Assembly (NCBI GenBank): GCA_005768725.1
Contig: VAFM01000002.1
Coordinates: 276,486 to 340,485, forward strand
Direction: 5' to 3'
DNA length: 64,000 nucleotides
Origin: Blastochloris viridis
GTDB lineage: Bacteria > Pseudomonadota > Alphaproteobacteria > UBA2136 > UBA6156
A program made the position numbers and the translations under genes. A model generated the notes under the pieces. That model worked only from the letters and a program-made list of their open reading frames with translations. It ran no database searches and was not told the DNA's origin. Numbering within the stretch: the first letter of the stretch is position 1; each line of letters begins with the position of its first letter. Below are positions 3,825 through 54,647 of the stretch, in pieces.

Positions 3825-3986
3825 GACATACTCTTTCGTTCGTTTCGCTAACTGCTTACCATCAAAACGCACGGGAAGCCAGCGTTGCCTCCCATTCCAA
3901 AAAGTTCCTGCGTTTGATAAATTCCGGCACGTAGTGCCGTTGCCCACACATACACGAGAATTAACGAAGCGCCGCAGGAGAATGCT

Positions 3987-4844
3987 TTAGCCCGCGCCGT
4001 TCAACACCTTACGCAGCAAAAGATTATTCGCCACATGCCCCGGCGCCGTCATGTGGAAGATCCCGCTCACCGGACGCCCCGCCATGTACAGGTCGCCCAC
4101 AACGTCCAACACCTTATGACGGACAGGTTCATCAGCAAACCGCAAGCCACCGGGGTTTTTTACGCTGCCGTCATCCCCGAATACGACCGCGTTCTCAAGG
4201 CTGCCGCCCTTGGCAAGGCCTGCCGCCTGCGCCGCCGCAATATCGCGCTCCAGCACAAAGGTGCGTGCCGGCGCAATCTCGCGTCGATAGGTCTCCTCGT
4301 CCACAACACCCTTCCATTCCTGACGCCCAATGGCCGGGTGCGGAAAGTCCACCACACACTCCACACGTAAGCCCTTGCGAGGCTCAGGGTTCGCCAGCAA
4401 GACGCGGCCTTCACTGTCTTCCACCTGCGGAGACGCGACATCCAGCCAGTTACGTTGAAGCTCAAGCTCCACACGCCCCACCGAGTCGATCAATTCCACC
4501 CACGGTAAGGCACTGCCGTCCAGAATCGGCACTTCCGGGCCGTTAATTTCAATAACAACGCTGTCCACACGCAGGCCATGCAGAGCACTTAACAAGTGCT
4601 CTACAGTGCTCACGTTCACGCCATGCTCATTTTCCAGCAATGTGCACAAAGGGCTACGCTTCACCATACTGGGGTGCAGATGAAACTCGCCATGACTCAC
4701 ATCGCCACGCCGCAGCATCACACCGGGCAAAGCCCCGATATGCGGACGCAAAACCACTTCGGCCCCGATCCCGCTGTGCAGACCAATCCCCCGGATGCTG
4801 ACCTCTTTGGCCAGCGTCACACTTTTGTGCATGTTCAATTCCAT
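3987..4844 (-). CDS. lpxC: UDP-3-O-acyl-N-acetylglucosamine deacetylase
   Basis: LpxC-like sequence and length (285 aa), downstream of ftsZ as in canonical dcw clusters; AGGAAAG RBS. Confidence 0.9.
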   Translation of the reverse strand: MELNMHKSVTLAKEVSIRGIGLHSGIGAEVVLRPHIGALPGVMLRRGDVSHGEFHLHPSMVKRSPLCTLLENEHGVNVSTVEHLLSALHGLRVDSVVIEINGPEVPILDGSALPWVELIDSVGRVELELQRNWLDVASPQVEDSEGRVLLANPEPRKGLRVECVVDFPHPAIGRQEWKGVVDEETYRREIAPARTFVLERDIAAAQAAGLAKGGSLENAVVFGDDGSVKNPGGLRFADEPVRHKVLDVVGDLYMAGRPVSGIFHMTAPGHVANNLLLRKVLNGAG

Positions 4845-23091: not shown

Positions 23092-23727
23092 CTAGTGTCC
23101 GCTGCCCTGGGCCTCGGCACCTGCCGGAGGCGTTTCATCGGCCGGAGTCGCCGGTTGGATCTCAGCGGTCGGGGTCGCTGGCTTTTCATCAATGGCCGGT
23201 TCCTTTACAGGAGCCGTTTCTGCCGGAGCGGTTTCCGCAGGCAGAGCTTCCTCGGTGGCAGCCTCTTCCTTCACAACCACCTTCTTGGCAGCCTTCTTCA
23301 CAGCCGGTTTGGCAACAGGGGTCGGCACACGTTTGCCGTTCTCATCCCAACGGTCAGCAAACTTGGCTTCGCCTTTACCCACAACAAACAAGCCGCTGGT
23401 CGGGTCAAAGGTAAAGCGGTCATATCCCTTTTCACGGGCATATTCCTGCCAGCTCTTGTCAGCCGTGTCCGGGAACTGGGTGGTGGTGCCGTCTTCCAGC
23501 TTCACGGTCGCCATGTGGCCCGGGTCAACGGTCGGGGCGCTGCCAACAGCCGTGGTTTCCACGGTAGTGTAGGTGGTCGTGGTGGTGGTCGGCACGTCCG
23601 AGTACGGGTTGGCCGGTACTTCGTGGGTCACGGTCGTGGTGTTTTCTACCTGCTCAACCATCACTTGGGCGTTAGCTTGGGTAGCTACCAGAGCAGCGGC
23701 CGCAGCAACATACAACATCTTGTTCAT
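23092..23727 (-). CDS. Secreted protein with poly-Thr tract and Lys/Ala/Pro/Glu-rich (histone H1-like) C-terminus
   Basis: Signal peptide MNKMLYVAAAAALVATQANA; AGGAGAAAA RBS at internal Met. Confidence 0.55.
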   Translation of the reverse strand: MNKMLYVAAAAALVATQANAQVMVEQVENTTTVTHEVPANPYSDVPTTTTTTYTTVETTAVGSAPTVDPGHMATVKLEDGTTTQFPDTADKSWQEYAREKGYDRFTFDPTSGLFVVGKGEAKFADRWDENGKRVPTPVAKPAVKKAAKKVVVKEEAATEEALPAETAPAETAPVKEPAIDEKPATPTAEIQPATPADETPPAGAEAQGSGH

Positions 23728-23932
23728 TTTAGGTTTTTCTCCTGTGTTGGATACCTTCATCATAAAGGCTCATCGGCAGTATAATGCACAATCACGCGGT
23801 TTGTTCAGCGTTTGGGTACGCTGCGTGCGCTTTTTTCCCAAGGGGGTGTGCCCATGGGGTTTTCCAATCATCCCGGAACCTTTGCCACGCTGTCCCGTCT
23901 CTCTCTTGATTAAGAAAACGACCAAGAAAGGT

Positions 23933-24508
23933 ATGACCATGACAACACTATCCGAAGCCCGCATCCTTATCCTCGCCACCGACGGCTTTGAACAATCCGA
24001 ACTGGAAACCCCGCTGAACGAACTCCGCGCCGCAGGTGCCACAGTGCACGTCTGTGCACCCTCCCAAACCAAGGAAGAAGGCGTCATTCGCGGCTGGAAA
24101 GACGGCGACTGGGGTACCACTGTTCCGGTTGATGTGATTCTGGAATCCAGCACCGACTGGCCCTACCACGCTCTAGTGCTGCCGGGCGGTGTGATCAACC
24201 CAGACACCCTGCGCACCAACCCCAATGCCGTGAAGCTGGTGCAGGCATTCGTCAACGAAGGCAAACCGGTCGCCGCCATCTGCCACGGCCCATGGCTGCT
24301 GGCCGAAGCCGATGTGGTGAACGGCCGTAAGGTCACCTCCTACACCTCCATTAAAACCGACATGATCAATGCCGGTGCCGACTGGCAGGATGCCGAGGTG
24401 GTGACCGACAACGGACTCATTACCTCGCGTAAGCCGTCCGACCTTCCCGCCTTCGTCGCCAAGATCCTCGAGGAAGTGCAGGAAGGCCAGCACCGCCGCG
24501 CCGCATAG
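23933..24508 (+). CDS. DJ-1/PfpI family protein (class I glutamine amidotransferase-like)
   Basis: AICHGP nucleophile-elbow motif, 191 aa from MTMTT start with AAGAAAGG RBS. Confidence 0.8.
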   Translation: MTMTTLSEARILILATDGFEQSELETPLNELRAAGATVHVCAPSQTKEEGVIRGWKDGDWGTTVPVDVILESSTDWPYHALVLPGGVINPDTLRTNPNAVKLVQAFVNEGKPVAAICHGPWLLAEADVVNGRKVTSYTSIKTDMINAGADWQDAEVVTDNGLITSRKPSDLPAFVAKILEEVQEGQHRRAA

Positions 24509-24693
24509 CGCTACCATACAACCCATAAGCCTCTCGGAATGGGAGGCTTTTTAGTATCTTACCGATAAAAATCCTTGTCTCCCCATCTTGACGAAGCCCA
24601 ACGCTCATTGCATACAAAGCATGTCGCAAGACATATGTTTGAAGTATCCCTAAATCACGTTCACCTTTCAGCCATTCCAAAAGGAGAGGAACC

Positions 24694-25128
24694 ATGCTGA
24701 AGAAACTTCTCACCTGCGCCAGCGCGGCCCTGATCACCGCTGCCATGCTGTCCACCAGCGCCCATGCCGACCTCCGCCGCTCCGGCCAGGCCGCCTGGGA
24801 TGTTTACCAGGGTCGTCTCGGCCTGAAGATCGGCGGCAACGCCAGTATGATCTTCGGCAACGAAACCTACTGCTCACGCGGTCAGGTGCAGAATATGGTC
24901 TATGGCCACTACAACCAGAACGTCGAGTTCGTCGGCAACATGTCGTCCCTCATCGGCCGTATGAACGGCAGCTGGGGCGGCAGCGGAGACTCGGACGGTT
25001 ACGTTCTTGCAGACGTCTTCGACTGCGGCGTCTCGCTCGGCGGGCGTCTCAGCGGCGCCGTCTGCGTCTCGCTGGACATCATGCAGCCGATGGGCACCCG
25101 CTACTGCGCCTACGGCACGCAGGAGTAA
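24694..25128 (+). CDS. Secreted protein (144 aa), hypothetical
   Basis: Signal peptide ..STSAHA; AAAAGGAGAGG RBS. Confidence 0.5.
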   Translation: MLKKLLTCASAALITAAMLSTSAHADLRRSGQAAWDVYQGRLGLKIGGNASMIFGNETYCSRGQVQNMVYGHYNQNVEFVGNMSSLIGRMNGSWGGSGDSDGYVLADVFDCGVSLGGRLSGAVCVSLDIMQPMGTRYCAYGTQE

Positions 25129-25198
25129 CCCTGCACGCACATGCGGAACGCCCTCCCGGCGTTCCGCAACTCCTTTCATGGTTCAGGAGGAACCCCTC

Positions 25199-25915
25199 AT
25201 GAAAATGCGTCCTACCTTACTTCTGGCCGCCTGCATCGCGCTTACGGCTTCCACGGCCATGGCCCAGCAGGTACCCAAGAATATCTCCGGTGATATCCTC
25301 ACCGACGACATCAACATCCACAGCCGCAACAGCGCAGAGGTCTGCTGGTCCAACAGTGACAATCAGACCTGCCATACTCTAGTGGGTGCCGGTAACGACC
25401 GCAACTGCACCGATAGCACTCTGCTTCGCACCGCCGAAACCTTCATGAACCGGAAGTTCCGCTACTACAATACCGACCGGCTCATGGATGAAGACGGCAA
25501 TCTCGAGATTCAGGGCGTCGGCGGTCTCCGCTCGTTCCTGAAACGCGACCGCGATGGCGGCATCTTTGCCGCCCTGCTCCGGTGCACCAGAAATGGTGAA
25601 TTCACCGGCACCTACGCGCTGCTGATCGATCTGGAAGACACCATGACCAACGAAGGCACCTTCAAGCCGGAAGGACTGTTCCATGTCGCCATCGACACGG
25701 GCGACGACGACATGGAACAAGTCGAACACGCTCCCGCTACTGTCGAAGACGAACCTATCGTCACGGAAAAACCGGTCGTCGTCACGCAGGAAGAGCAACT
25801 TCCCGCCAAGCCTTCGGCCAAGGCCGGACTGGCGAAGCAGGTCGAATCCCTGTCGGAAGAAGATGCCGAGGCCATCGCCAAAGCCATTCAGGAGATCAGG
25901 GATAAAAAGCAATAA
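25199..25915 (+). CDS. Secreted protein, tandem paralog E (238 aa) with acidic C-terminal tail
   Basis: Signal peptide ..ASTAMA; AGGAGG RBS; paralogous core shared with 26064 gene (..YALLIDLED.. vs ..YALIIDKDE..). Confidence 0.55.
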   Translation: MKMRPTLLLAACIALTASTAMAQQVPKNISGDILTDDINIHSRNSAEVCWSNSDNQTCHTLVGAGNDRNCTDSTLLRTAETFMNRKFRYYNTDRLMDEDGNLEIQGVGGLRSFLKRDRDGGIFAALLRCTRNGEFTGTYALLIDLEDTMTNEGTFKPEGLFHVAIDTGDDDMEQVEHAPATVEDEPIVTEKPVVVTQEEQLPAKPSAKAGLAKQVESLSEEDAEAIAKAIQEIRDKKQ

Positions 25916-25928
25916 CCCTCTATATTGT

Positions 25929-25959
25929 AAAAAACGGCAGCCCAGTGGCTGCCGTTTTT
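25929..25959 (+). terminator. Rho-independent terminator (identical copy at 26628-26657)
   Basis: aaaaacggcagcc-cagt-ggctgccgttttt. Confidence 0.7.
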
Positions 25960-26063
25960 CTCTTTTCCATGGCATCGCTCGGCCCACCTTGACCACTCGT
26001 ATCACTCAATATATACAGCAATCACCACAACTTAGCCCTTTCCTCACGCCCGGAGCCTCTCTC

Positions 26064-26621
26064 ATGCGCGCATCTTTCCGTCTGTCTCTTTCCGTTCTGG
26101 CCATGGTCATGTGCCATGTCCCGCAACCCTCTGCCGCCGCCGAGCCCAAGATCGACATCATTTACGGCAACCTACTCAATTACAAAATAGATCTCCGCGA
26201 TCCGGCCATCACCTTGTGTTGGGAAGAGATCTTCAGCCCCGGCAAGCTCAAAGCATGCCGGACCGTTGTTCCTTCCGATACCTATGGCCAGGCCCTCACC
26301 TGCCCTCTGATGAATGTCGGGGATATGGCGGAAAGCTTCATGACGATCTGGCGCAATGTTCTCAAACTGAAGGGTGATTTCAGCCAGATACCCGAATGGC
26401 CTGCCATAACGGGCTTTGCGGCCCTGCCTCGCATTCTGGCGACCAATGGCGAAGGCACGCTGCATGCAAGCCTGATCCAATGCCAGGTGGACGGTCAGCT
26501 GACGGATATCTACGCCCTGATCATCGATAAGGACGAGGTCAACCTGTCGGACGCCAAGGCCGAAAAGGGACTGTATCCAGAAGCCGTCTTCAAGGTGACG
26601 CTGCAAAAGCCGTCCAAATAA
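26064..26621 (+). CDS. Secreted protein, tandem paralog F (185 aa)
   Basis: Signal peptide ..PSAAA; shares core with gene E; identical terminator downstream. Confidence 0.55.
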   Translation: MRASFRLSLSVLAMVMCHVPQPSAAAEPKIDIIYGNLLNYKIDLRDPAITLCWEEIFSPGKLKACRTVVPSDTYGQALTCPLMNVGDMAESFMTIWRNVLKLKGDFSQIPEWPAITGFAALPRILATNGEGTLHASLIQCQVDGQLTDIYALIIDKDEVNLSDAKAEKGLYPEAVFKVTLQKPSK

Positions 26622-26627
26622 CGTCGC

Positions 26628-26657
26628 AAAAACGGCAGCCCAGTGGCTGCCGTTTTT
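26628..26657 (+). terminator. Rho-independent terminator (identical to 25929-25959)
   Basis: aaaaacggcagcc-cagt-ggctgccgttttt. Confidence 0.7.
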
Positions 26658-26700
26658 GCGTTTCTTGCCAAAGGTACACAAATCCCCTAGGTTACGGCAC

Positions 26701-27345
26701 ATGATCACCCGCCCGACCCCGACCATCACCCTTGTCCATAACGATCTCCCCGCCGGCCTCACCTTCCCGAACGGCATGGTCGCGATCGATACCGAAACCA
26801 CCGGCCTCTCGCTGGTGACCGACCGCCTGTGCCTGGCCCAGGTCGGCGATGGCGAAGGCAACGTCTGGCTGGTCAAGTTCGATGGCTCCGACTACTCCGC
26901 ACCTAACCTGCGCAAAGTGCTGGAAGACCCGCGCCTCATTAAGCTCTTCCACTTCGCCCGCTTCGACCTCGCCATGCTGCAAAAATGGCTGGGCCTGCCG
27001 GAGATCCATCCCTCTTTCTGCACCAAAATCGCCAGCAAGCTCACCCAACCCGGCCCGGGCAAACATAACCTGCGCACCCTGTGCAAAGACTTTCTGGGTG
27101 TCGAGCTCGATAAGACCGAGCAGATGTCCAACTGGGCGGCAGAAGAACTGACCGAAAGCCAGATGAACTACGCCGCCTCGGACGTTCTCTACCTGCATGA
27201 GCTCTACCAGATCTTCAGCGACAAACTGACCGAAATGGGTCTCAACGTCGCCATGCACAACGCCCTCAACTTCCTCGCCACTCGCGTCGAGCTCGACCTC
27301 AAGGGCTACCCCGAGACCGATCTCTTCTCCCACACCGGCTGGTAA
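26701..27345 (+). CDS. RNase D-like 3'-5' exonuclease (DEDDy family), short single-domain form
   Basis: Exo I AIDTETTGL, Exo III YAASDVLYL motifs; 214 aa. Confidence 0.75.
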   Translation: MITRPTPTITLVHNDLPAGLTFPNGMVAIDTETTGLSLVTDRLCLAQVGDGEGNVWLVKFDGSDYSAPNLRKVLEDPRLIKLFHFARFDLAMLQKWLGLPEIHPSFCTKIASKLTQPGPGKHNLRTLCKDFLGVELDKTEQMSNWAAEELTESQMNYAASDVLYLHELYQIFSDKLTEMGLNVAMHNALNFLATRVELDLKGYPETDLFSHTGW

Positions 27346-27399: not shown

Positions 27400-27924
27400 C
27401 TACATGCCGCGCGTACACAAAAATTCCTGAGTATGACACTCATTCAAATAAACACCGCCACTTCCCGGATATTTACAGAAATTCGACATTTCGTTTTCAC
27501 TCATACGGTCGGTACCATACCCAATATGTAACACTTTCGCGTCGCCGCAACGCGGTACGCCATTCTGGCATCCGGTTGCATCCCCCCACGGGTTGCGTAT
27601 GGTCCAGTCAGTCCCAACACGGGGTCCCGACTCCGGCGTCAGACACTGCCCACCACCCGTAATCACAAAGCCGCGCATACAGCCGTTACCATCTGCGCCA
27701 GCCTGTCCAGTCGCATAAAACGCCCCCTTACGCGCACAGGCATCCACCTGATTAAGCCGTATATGCGCCGATTTCGCATTATTGTTGGCTTGGTCGGCAA
27801 TATTCTGCAAAGCCGACCAACTGGCCTCCATGTTCAAACTTCCTCCCGCCGTCCGCTCTTGGGCATAGCTGCCGCACACCAGGCTTAAGGCAACGACAAC
27901 AACCGACCAGACACGTACGTTCAT
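27400..27924 (-). CDS. Secreted Cys-rich protein, paralog B of the QERTAGG family (9 Cys in C-terminal half)
   Basis: Signal peptide ..GSYA|QE; N-terminal 60 aa about 65% identical to paralog A, C-terminus unrelated. Confidence 0.6.
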   Translation of the reverse strand: MNVRVWSVVVVALSLVCGSYAQERTAGGSLNMEASWSALQNIADQANNNAKSAHIRLNQVDACARKGAFYATGQAGADGNGCMRGFVITGGGQCLTPESGPRVGTDWTIRNPWGDATGCQNGVPRCGDAKVLHIGYGTDRMSENEMSNFCKYPGSGGVYLNECHTQEFLCTRGM

Positions 27925-28013
27925 GAAGGAATCTTTCTTTTGGTTCTGTAATATTATAACCCTGAAGAGCAAGCAAACCTGACGCCTTCCAAATTCTTAA
28001 AAAATCAGCCCGA

Positions 28014-37494: not shown

Positions 37495-37498
37495 GCAC

Positions 37499-38020
37499 CT
37501 GCACGGGGTCACCGCGAGCCGCAAGGTTCGAGGAAAGTCCGGGCACCCACGGGCCACCGGCCGGAGAATATCCGGGCTGGCGACTCCCGCCAGACCAACA
37601 GGGCCACAGAAAAGAACCACCCCAGCAATGGGGAACGGGTGAAAAGGTAGGGTAAAAGCCTACCGCCGTTTCTAGCAATAGAGCGGGCGAGAGTAGGTTC
37701 CAGAATCGCTAGGCAGAGGTGATTTTTGAGATTTGCAAAGACTGAGCACCGTAAGTGTACACGCGAGTACACGCGGAGCGGAAGGCAAGCAAAGCTCAAA
37801 AAGCGCTCTGCATAGTAGATTCTGGAGCCTACTCGAAGGTAACCTGCCGGAGGGTGCAATGCTAAATAGGGACTCCCAGTGGCGCGGTCCGCGTCCGAAG
37901 CGCAAGCCGAGGAGGGTCCGGGTTGGCAGCTTGACGCCTGACGCAAGTCAGCGCGCAGATGAATGGTGACCGATCCCGCAAGGGAGAACAGAACCCGGCT
38001 TATACGTGCAGCAGGAGACT
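37499..38020 (+). ncRNA. rnpB: RNase P RNA (bacterial type A) with about 127-nt repeat-element insertion in helix P12
   Basis: P4 core AGGAAAGTCCGGGC (37531-37544), 3' core ACAGAACCCGGCTTATACG, P1/P2 complementarity (ggtcacc/ggtgacc); terminator hairpin follows. Confidence 0.78.
37699..37825 (+). repeat. Structured repeat element, copy 1 (diverged), inserted at the tip of rnpB P12
   Basis: ccagaatcgctaggcagag..gcaccgtaagtgtacacgcgagtacacgcggagcg..tagtagattctgg; homologous to copies at 38098 and 41420. Confidence 0.7.
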
Positions 38021-38097: not shown

Positions 38098-38236
38098 CTC
38101 CGGAACTCGCTGGCAGCGAGGGATTTTTGATTTTCTCCGCTGATGCTAGCACCGTAAGTGTACAAGGTCGGTACATGCGGAGCGCAGCATCAAGGAAAAA
38201 TCAAAAAGCACCGCTGTCCAGTAGAGTTCGGTTCCT
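38098..38236 (+). repeat. Structured repeat element, copy 2 (about 138 nt, long imperfect hairpin with terminal inverted repeats ccggaactc / gagttcgg)
   Basis: ccggaactcgctggcagcgagggatttttgattttctccgctgatgctagcaccgtaagtgtacaaggtcggtacatgcggagcgcagcatcaaggaaaaatcaaaaagcaccgctgtccagtagagttcgg. Confidence 0.7.
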
Positions 38237-41419: not shown

Positions 41420-41554
41420 CCCCGGAACTCGCTGAGCGCGAGGGATTTTTTGTTTTCTCCGCAGAGACGAGCACCGCAAGTGTACGAGGTTGTACATGCG
41501 GAGCGCAGGAACAAGGAAAAACAAAAAAGCACCGCGCTCAGTAGAGTTCGGTGC
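41420..41554 (+). repeat. Structured repeat element, copy 3, between fumC and flgE
   Basis: ccggaactcgctgagcgcgagggattttttgttttctccgcagagacgagcaccgcaagtgtacgaggttgtacatgcggagcgcaggaacaaggaaaaacaaaaaagcaccgcgctcagtagagttcgg. Confidence 0.7.
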
Positions 41555-41571
41555 TTTGAGAGAGGATGCTA

Positions 41572-47490: not shown

Positions 47491-47693
47491 GGCGCAAGGC
47501 ATGCGCAAAACGCATAGCTCTCCCGGCGCCAACCGCGCATGAAATACCCATGCGCGGAAGCCCCTGCGCACGGAGCTAGAAACCTTTATTCTGGGGTGAT
47601 GAGGCAAACCGACGTGTACAGATACGTACACGAGGATTGACGAAGCGCCACAGAGAAAGGTTTTAGCCCGCGCCTTTCAACACCGCCTACGCC

Positions 47694-54614: not shown

Positions 54615-54647
54615 AAAAAAATGCGGGCTGTTTTAGCCCGCGCTTTT
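54615..54647 (-). terminator. Rho-independent terminator after cheB (hairpin embeds the stop codon)
   Basis: Minus strand: gcgggc-taaaaca-gcccgc followed by ATTTTTTT. Confidence 0.65.

Follow-up and report, generated by a model that had tools for sequence, protein, structure and literature searches.

Why should two neighbouring genes with strongly diverged coding sequences be followed by exactly the same 30 nucleotides? This question is raised by a stretch of 64,000 nucleotides (the window; positions 276,486 to 340,485 of the forward strand of contig VAFM01000002.1, assembly GCA_005768725.1), which belongs to a metagenome-assembled genome (MAG) labelled Blastochloris viridis. In this window the genes E and F, which encode small proteins with signal peptides, are each followed by a terminator-like hairpin. 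An earlier note on this DNA had offered two explanations, namely a recent duplication with very fast divergence of the proteins, or homogenisation of the terminators by gene conversion. Our analysis points to a third answer, which we regard as probable although far from certain: the two terminators would be the junctions of a recent gain of a cassette carrying F, or the substrate of a loss of F, in both cases by recombination within the hairpin. The argument starts from the following features.

25199 to 25915, plus strand: gene E, 238 amino acids, with a signal peptide, a four-cysteine core (about residues 29-165) and an acidic and proline-rich C-terminal tail

25930 to 25959, plus strand: first hairpin (hp1), intrinsic-terminator-like, A5-CGGCAGCC-CAGT-GGCTGCCG-T5

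25960 to 26063, plus strand: 5' region of the F cassette, with promoter-like elements and elements resembling a ribosome binding site (RBS), read by eye from the sequence

26064 to 26621, plus strand: gene F, 185 amino acids, with a signal peptide and the four-cysteine core of E, without the tail

26628 to 26657, plus strand: second hairpin (hp2), identical to hp1; in relatives the orthologous terminator lies just upstream of the promoter region of rnd, an RNase D-like exonuclease gene

The 30-mer AAAAACGGCAGCCCAGTGGCTGCCGTTTTT is present in two exact copies, hp1 3' of E and hp2 3' of F. None of 100 dinucleotide-preserving shuffles yielded a match, and no third copy was found in the whole window at up to three mismatches. 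Thus, the same sequence does stand behind both genes, as the earlier note had claimed, and not by chance; only its position had to be moved one base to the left of the end coordinate implied there. A common genome-wide terminator motif, which the note had named as a trivial explanation, does not account for the identity within these 64 kb, since they hold two copies only. Alignment of the flanking DNA, which the note had suggested, gave a match of 30 out of 30 nucleotides that ends sharply there, with unrelated sequence on either side (hp1: ...TATATTGTA-hairpin-CTCTTTTCC...; hp2: ...AACGTCGC-hairpin-GCGTTTCTTGCC...).

Both hairpins lie on the coding strand, hp1 14 nt past the stop codon of E and hp2 6 nt past that of F. 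Each folds into a perfect 13-bp stem (8 G-C/C-G pairs and an A5:T5 extension) with a 4-nt loop, followed by T5. The predicted folding energies are -20.5 kcal/mol for hp1 (z -4.9) and -28.9 kcal/mol for hp2 (z -7.3), where flanking CGC/GCG lengthens the stem to 16 bp (26625-26660). By these criteria hp1 and hp2 look like strong Rho-independent (intrinsic) terminators. They are not the generic terminator of the window, because neighbouring terminators differ from them in sequence: that of the upstream DJ-1/PfpI gene reads AAGCCTCTCGGAATGGGAGGCTTTTT, and the hairpin behind gene G, which lies between DJ-1 and E, reads GCGGAACGCCCTCCCGGCGTTCCGC. An Rfam search of the window returned RNase P only.

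Judged by their alignment, E and F are true paralogs. BLASTP aligned 154 residues at 27% identity (E=1e-11) with four conserved cysteines, so that the shared core described in the earlier note is borne out by a significant similarity. Their split is old. The Nei-Gojobori method gave a pS of 0.63-0.67 and a dS of at least 1.4, and third positions are 41% identical against 31% expected from composition. A codon-identity test, which uses aligned positions with the same degenerate amino acid and is independent of alignment quality, found the same codon at 23 of 44 conserved degenerate residues, where 21.7 are expected from local codon usage. The synonymous sites of the pair are fully randomised. 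The dN/dS ratio of E versus F, proposed earlier as a check, is uninformative at this saturation of dS, and the codon test and strain-level ratios were used instead. Between strains dN/dS was 0.11 for E (window versus the related locus L126) and 0.17 and 0.30 for G and F, respectively (window versus locus L001); housekeeping neighbours gave 0.02-0.09. E, F and G are under purifying selection between strains. Since 30 unconstrained nucleotides would differ widely after the split of E and F, the identity of the hairpins must be much younger than the genes.

In order to compare the locus with its relatives, orthologous loci were gathered by exact-protein look-ups and by the conserved rnd-like neighbour; they are numbered here with the prefix L. 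One of them, L126 (Logan SRR32006983, a single contig of 1,073 nt), is devoid of F. Its positions 1-809 correspond to window 25157-25965 at 95% identity, and its positions 775-1073 correspond to window 26628-26927 at 94%, starting directly from the same hairpin. From the stop codon of E it reads TCTTCTATAGTGTA-A7CGGCAGCC-AGT-GGCTGCCGT5-GCCTTTCTTGCCAAAGGTACAC... and continues into rnd. Where the window has two perfect direct repeats, L126 joins the outer flanks with one repeat, the pattern of an indel flanked by direct repeats:

25960 to 26657, equivalently 25930 to 26627, plus strand: 698-bp indel unit (F promoter, F and one hairpin), absent from L126, where one hairpin is left

In a search of 5.8 billion proteins the sample from which L126 was assembled contributed a variant of E (P0002) and no variant of F. 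From the aligned contigs, the 698-bp F unit appears to be a presence/absence polymorphism with its breakpoints inside the repeat. The unit looks self-contained. Upstream of F we read TTGACC (25989-25994), a 17-nt spacer, TATACA (26012-26017) and GGAG (26052-26055), the last 8 nt before the ATG, and F may thus carry its own promoter-like sequence and RBS, although a strict consensus scan did not call a promoter. The 5' region of F does not resemble the sequence upstream of E and had no nucleotide match in the relatives.

E and F are members of a small, lineage-restricted family. When 1.8 billion representatives were searched exhaustively with a profile, two distant homologs came up in addition, P0003 (E=6e-19) and P0004 (E=1e-4), and locus L138 contributes a protein of 156 amino acids. 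All five proteins have a signal peptide, the pattern C-W...C...C...C and a C-terminal strand resembling (Y)AL.IDLED; the residues C49, W50, C58, C70 and C129 are invariant among them. The members are found in the interval between DJ-1 and rnd, which holds the following features in the window.

23939 to 24508, plus strand: DJ-1/PfpI gene (Pfam PF01965), conserved left flank of the island

24509 to 26657, no strand assigned: hypervariable island, with G, E and F here and differing content among relatives

24694 to 25128, plus strand: gene G, an open reading frame of 144 amino acids with a Sec-type signal peptide and cysteines, possibly a distant family member

25143 to 25167, plus strand: hairpin after G, GCGGAACGCC-CTCCC-GGCGTTCCGC, dG -19.1, without a clear T-run and different in sequence from the hairpin of E and F

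26701 to 27345, plus strand: RNase D-like 3'-5' exonuclease gene (rnd-like; Pfam PF01612, DNA_pol_A_exo1), conserved right flank

Across the loci compared this interval contains 0, 1, 2 or 3 family members. Together with the presence or absence of F this is the copy-number variation among strains for which the earlier note had suggested looking. The arrangements are as follows (hp, hairpin; nt, nucleotide identity; aa, amino acid identity).

Window, L002, L003 and L128 (identical): G-E-hp-F-hp

L001 (96.6% nt): G-E-hp-F-hp, both hairpins equal to those of the window

L126 (about 95% nt): E-hp-rnd, without F

L129 to L131 (flanks 78% nt, DJ-1 86% aa): G' (163 amino acids)-P0003 (244 amino acids)-hp, then the contig end; at least two members

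L138 (rnd 93% aa): a single member of 156 amino acids, hp, rnd

L142 and L143 (rnd 94% aa): no genes; the terminator of DJ-1 itself adjoins GCGTTTCTTGCCAAAGG and rnd

L139 to L141 (rnd 84% aa): an ImuB/DinB-like gene, in some cases accompanied by further small exported proteins; the genes of L139 and L141 are unrelated to the family

L132 to L137 (more distant): COX3-P0004-hp-(helicase-like gene)-rnd

At the nucleotide level, homology of the window to L129, L138 and L142 is lost at the stop codon of DJ-1 (24507), just after it or 20 nt into G, and homology to relatives is regained exactly at hp2 (26625-26650). Family members of different genomes are 25-36% identical, even where rnd agrees at 93% of its amino acids (dS 0.65); in the L138 type, which has this rnd identity, the resident member shares only about 28% of its residues with E (dN 0.62). 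Because this divergence far exceeds what the strain-level dN/dS would yield in place, we infer that cassettes were replaced, and that island members were exchanged from an old pool rather than evolved in situ. The genes within 10 kb on either side are mur/ftsI/ftsL, DJ-1, rnd, kpsF and lptCAB, and none of the Pfam-annotated genes in this range is a transposase, RAYT-like or integrase gene.

The hairpin itself can be followed through these lineages. The rnd-proximal copy is orthologous by a shared right flank, GC(G/C)TTTCTTGCCAAA, in L126, L138 and L142. The orthologous hairpins keep the core CGGCAGC/GCTGCCG-T5, whereas the loop or stem top differs in each lineage (CAGT in the window and L001, AGT in L126, CTC in L129, CCCACA in L138, CTTGT in L145 and TTCG in L132, which also has an A-to-G change in the stem). 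The loop is evidently free to vary, as CAGT and AGT differ even at 95% genome identity. By contrast, hp1 equals hp2 at all 30 positions in the window and likewise in L001. Since the two agree at the very positions that vary, either one copy was recently made from the other or the pair is kept alike. In the relatives the hairpin was seen solely at this orthologous position. Two independent contigs of the L129 type end at the same base directly after the hairpin (L129 3678-3707, L131 2753-2782). Such ends would be expected if the assembly graph branched at a hairpin that is repeated or polymorphic, and they suggest a repeat or a polymorphic cassette in this relative too. Starting from P0012, a search for the rnd contig of the L129-type genome led to another type of genome, in which the hairpin is missing.

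Outside this lineage the stem is not rare. A contig scan with the stem pattern AACGGCAGCCNNNNGGCTGCCGTT proved too permissive: the matches listed included more than 120 single, unrelated terminators from different phyla, and the stem is, as far as such matches tell, a common terminator that is convergent across bacteria. A metagenome scan with a 26-mer returned two LNAP01 contigs only (about 46% GC), which match a Methylotenera MAG locus (L093). There and in two further loci a hairpin with 29 nt identical to those of the window and an oppositely oriented loop follows ihfB (L093 1130-1158, L124 7814-7842, L125 11648-11676); the hosts are unrelated betaproteobacteria of about 45% GC. The cross-phylum matches are the convergence of a low-information palindrome in a very large database and cannot explain two adjacent copies.

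We propose the following course of events. The 30-nt repeat would represent one terminator, now doubled because of a recent recombination that involved the F cassette; hp2 would be the ancestral, orthologous copy and hp1 its young copy, or the reverse. Family members would be gained, lost and exchanged as units that consist of their own 5' region, the gene and the terminator. In the case of a gain, a chromosome with the order E-hp-rnd, as in L126, would have recombined with DNA of a related strain in which F was bounded on both sides by the same terminator, with the hairpin of about 30 bp and rnd as the two homology arms. In the case of a loss, an ancestor with the order E-hp-F-hp-rnd would have dropped F by replication slippage or by homologous recombination between the repeats. 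We slightly favour the gain, because a single event covers both the identity and the polymorphism while a loss needs prior homogenisation. Any donor of F should have been a close relative, because E (0.72) and F (0.69) have a GC content at third codon positions (GC3) inside the native range. Whichever event came first, the F cassette, flanked as it now is by a direct repeat, can be cut out precisely.

Several points weigh against this proposal. The F-less allele is one short-read contig of 1,073 nt whose coverage is not known, and the hairpin roughly equals k in length in a k=31 assembly, so that a collapse is possible; such assemblers, however, usually break at such a place and do not join. 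Relatives of F were not found outside of strain variants that are 98% identical, and no donor with F elsewhere was seen. Among the loci compared, no outgroup shows the sequence downstream of E'. A length of 30 bp is at the lower limit for RecA-dependent exchange. Finally, the count of hairpin copies covers the 64 kb and the flanks only.

What else could have produced two identical hairpins behind such old paralogs? An ancient and stable tandem E-hp-F-hp, whose hairpins were homogenised by recurrent gene conversion of short tracts or by template switching and from which L126 would be a secondary deletion or an assembly artefact, is possible, and we give it limited credence. E and F are indeed adjacent paralogs, the evidence from L126 consists of one short contig, and hairpins that are identical within a genome while their orthologs differ in the loop are the classical signature of concerted evolution. 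In this respect the locus resembles tandem paralogs such as tufA/tufB or the rRNA operons, where copies within a genome are closer to each other than orthologs between genomes; unlike in those cases, the identical tract is a 30-nt non-coding hairpin and the coding sequences are unconverted. The identity extends over 30 nt only, and there is no flanking homology that could seed or extend a conversion tract. Neither an F ortholog nor a stable E-F pair was found in the other genomes, and the island differs in every relative examined. Moreover, two processes, homogenisation and deletion, would be needed in place of one recombination event, and a single copying event fits the identity of the hairpins equally well as recurrent conversion does. 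The gene conversion considered in the earlier note is thus upheld insofar as the hairpins are far younger than the genes, as the different loops of the orthologs attest, but the coincidence of the repeat with the breakpoints of the F indel points to gain or loss of a cassette instead.

A bolder version of cassette exchange is, in our judgement, improbable: the hairpin might be a portable recombination site at which single-gene cassettes of this family are inserted, excised and swapped among strains at the DJ-1/rnd slot without a dedicated integrase. Recombination would then be stimulated by the cruciform or hairpin, or replication would switch templates there, and the locus would represent a minimal cassette system punctuated by terminators, comparable in function to an integron. 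With integron cassettes the locus shares the small one-gene units, the palindromic punctuation and the variable number at a fixed locus, and excision would likewise leave one site. In contrast to integrons, no integrase domain was found by Pfam within 10 kb on either side, F seems to carry a promoter, and the array comprises at most three units. The hairpin also differs from attC sites: it has a perfect 13-bp stem and A/T tracts, without R and L boxes, a GTTRRRY core or extrahelical bases.

Membership of the hairpin in a dispersed, mobile or functional repeat family, be it REP/REPIN-like, MITE-like or an inverted pair of uptake sequences, is very unlikely. The genome does contain other dispersed palindromes, e.g., an element of about 135 nt, and the same stem is common as a terminator in many unrelated bacteria. 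Like REP, BIME and REPIN sequences or MITEs, the hairpin is a short GC-rich palindrome 3' of genes with a possible role as terminator, mRNA stabiliser and recombination site. Those families, however, comprise tens to hundreds of copies together with a RAYT or transposase, whereas here two copies occur in 64 kb at a single locus, no transposase or RAYT-like gene is among the Pfam-annotated genes within 10 kb on either side, and no copy was found elsewhere in the flanks of the relatives. The 9-nt arm ACGGCAGCC has five matches in the window, of which four are the hairpin arms themselves, so that it occurs once elsewhere where about 1.4 matches are expected. This lack of over-representation in the window led us to reject a pair of DNA uptake sequences. 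The matches in other phyla are single, unrelated terminators, as expected for convergence.

The element of about 135 nt is an imperfect palindrome in its own right. Its two copies (38100-38232 and 41420-41555) are 87% identical, have the ends CCGGAACTC...GAGTTCGG and a predicted RNA folding energy of -64.5 kcal/mol (z -6.6); the RNase P RNA gene (37496-38018) ends about 80 nt upstream of the first. The element resembles dispersed elements of the MITE type or large ones of the REP type and is unrelated to the terminator hairpin. A further intergenic repeat of 61 nt with the core GTTTTAGCCCGCGC is found at 3948-4008 and 47624-47684 (84% identical), with a partial third copy at 54630-54647.

Purifying selection alone, with both terminators inherited from an ancient duplication and every base needed for termination or for a bound factor, can hardly be the cause. 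Conservation of terminators does occur at this locus: that of DJ-1 is identical at 26 of 26 positions between the window and L129 at a dS of about 1, and the stem A5-CGGCAGCC is the same in the window, L126 and L129. Nevertheless, the loop or stem top differs in all six lineages even at 95% identity, and it is precisely there that hp1 and hp2 agree. The last explanation, a recent tandem duplication of E with its terminator and an extremely rapid diversification of the copy into F, which had been the first alternative of the earlier note, might draw on the low identity of members among genomes with housekeeping proteins 86-93% identical and on a nominal dN/dS above 1 for G versus G', but it is contradicted by the randomised synonymous positions in the codon test, by 5' regions of E and F that share nothing and by strain-level dN/dS of 0.1-0.3, and it would have to post-date a split with a dS of just 0.15-0.28, so that we consider it to be extremely improbable.

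The preferred reading, gain or loss of the F cassette between two copies of one terminator, has relatives among known processes. A passage in PMC8546616, which cites Sleight et al., documents that identical terminators allow recombination-mediated deletion in engineered circuits. When we searched the literature for terminators that are duplicated or identical in nature, only examples from synthetic biology turned up. As in deletion or duplication mediated by direct repeats, a perfect direct repeat flanks a dispensable unit and L126 keeps exactly one copy. In contrast to the circuits, the repeat here is a native orthologous terminator on a natural chromosome and is itself a perfect palindrome; furthermore, the gene between the repeats and its neighbour are diverged paralogs, and the event may be a gain. 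With hypervariable or replacement islands the locus shares fixed flanks (DJ-1 and rnd), content that is replaced among close relatives and exported proteins without a Pfam or NCBIfam match. It differs from them in its very small size (0-2.1 kb), in the lack of mobility genes and in the recurrence of the same protein family. In this reading, repeat-mediated cassette turnover is the known part, and the use of a native terminator as the repeat, in a small island of exported proteins, is the new one.

A possible second hairpin-gene-hairpin arrangement was encountered in Aeromonas taiwanensis (L094, NZ_CDDD01000008.1). Two terminators with the same stem, AAAAACGGCAGCC/GGCTGCCGTT (2861-2892 and 4731-4762; loops TCTT and TGT), flank one minus-strand gene of 541 amino acids, read from its translation as a phosphoethanolamine transferase (EptA/MCR-like). 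This arrangement may be independent and may hint that such units recur.

The proteins of the island were characterised further by database searches. The proteins of G, E and F correspond to TKW60663-5 (DI628_07120/25/30) on a 626-kb contig of the MAG. In the search of 5.8 billion proteins, which is word-indexed, E and F retrieved strain variants only, and searches of Pfam, NCBIfam and PDB sequences gave no family match for either of them. The UniRef name of F, DUF3617, was rejected: at E<=1 the only Pfam hit of F was a sub-threshold DUF4530. An AlphaFold (AF2) model of E, for which six sequences were used (pLDDT 70), is rich in beta structure and contains two helices; no structural neighbour reached significance. 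To judge from signal peptides and conserved cysteines, the E and F proteins are probably exported and disulfide-bonded.

Whether G is a third, more distant member, as the earlier note had surmised, is less clear. In its favour, G matches P0004 with 50% identity over 30 residues (E=2e-8; common motif DCGV.LGG.L.G..C..L), and its size, signal peptide and position are like those of P0004 and the family. Direct comparisons with E (E=0.09) and F (E=5) were not significant, and neither was a profile-profile comparison by hhalign (E=0.049, probability 1%). Membership of G is plausible on this sequence evidence.

The surroundings of the island offer some observations of their own. From the G-E spacer through E, hp1 and the 5' region of F as far as nucleotide 110 of F (25129 to 26173), the window and L001 (5-6 kb) show 1 difference in about 1,045 nt, whereas flanking genes differ by 2-6%; such near-identity suggests a recent homologous-recombination tract or a sweep across E. 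Two further lineage-specific genes for exported proteins, neither with a Pfam family, lie on the minus strand nearby:

23092 to 23763, minus strand: exported protein of 223 amino acids, rich in threonine, proline, alanine and lysine

27400 to 27972, minus strand: cysteine-rich exported protein of 190 amino acids, with called lengths that vary among the strains (202 and 143 amino acids)

In L001 and most relatives (L132, L139, L142, L144) the fluoride channel gene crcB is located between the gene for the 190-residue protein and kpsF. It is absent from the window (27868-28013 versus L001 7670-8217), a second strain-level indel near the island. The window has a GC content of 58%, and the closest homologs of its rnd product are named only 'Alphaproteobacteria/Pseudomonadota bacterium'. 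The GC content of B. viridis, which we take to be well above 60%, makes the species label doubtful, and the label of the source MAG is probably a binning or naming artefact.

Overall, the locus is in our view neither a new molecular machine nor a case of runaway protein evolution; it is probably a small site of cassette gain or loss, at which a native terminator can double as a breakpoint of gene-cassette turnover. Should the same hold in general, the short portable homology that strong palindromic terminators supply would be an overlooked factor in the shaping of small hypervariable loci, and pairs of identical terminators would allow a recent cassette gain, or genes ready for precise loss, to be recognised cheaply and from sequence alone. 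For the uncultured alphaproteobacterial lineage concerned, the analysis defines a small family of exported four-cysteine proteins without a match in Pfam or NCBIfam and with unusually fast turnover at one slot. A pattern of this kind is typical for proteins that act at the surface or in interactions and are subject to frequency-dependent selection.

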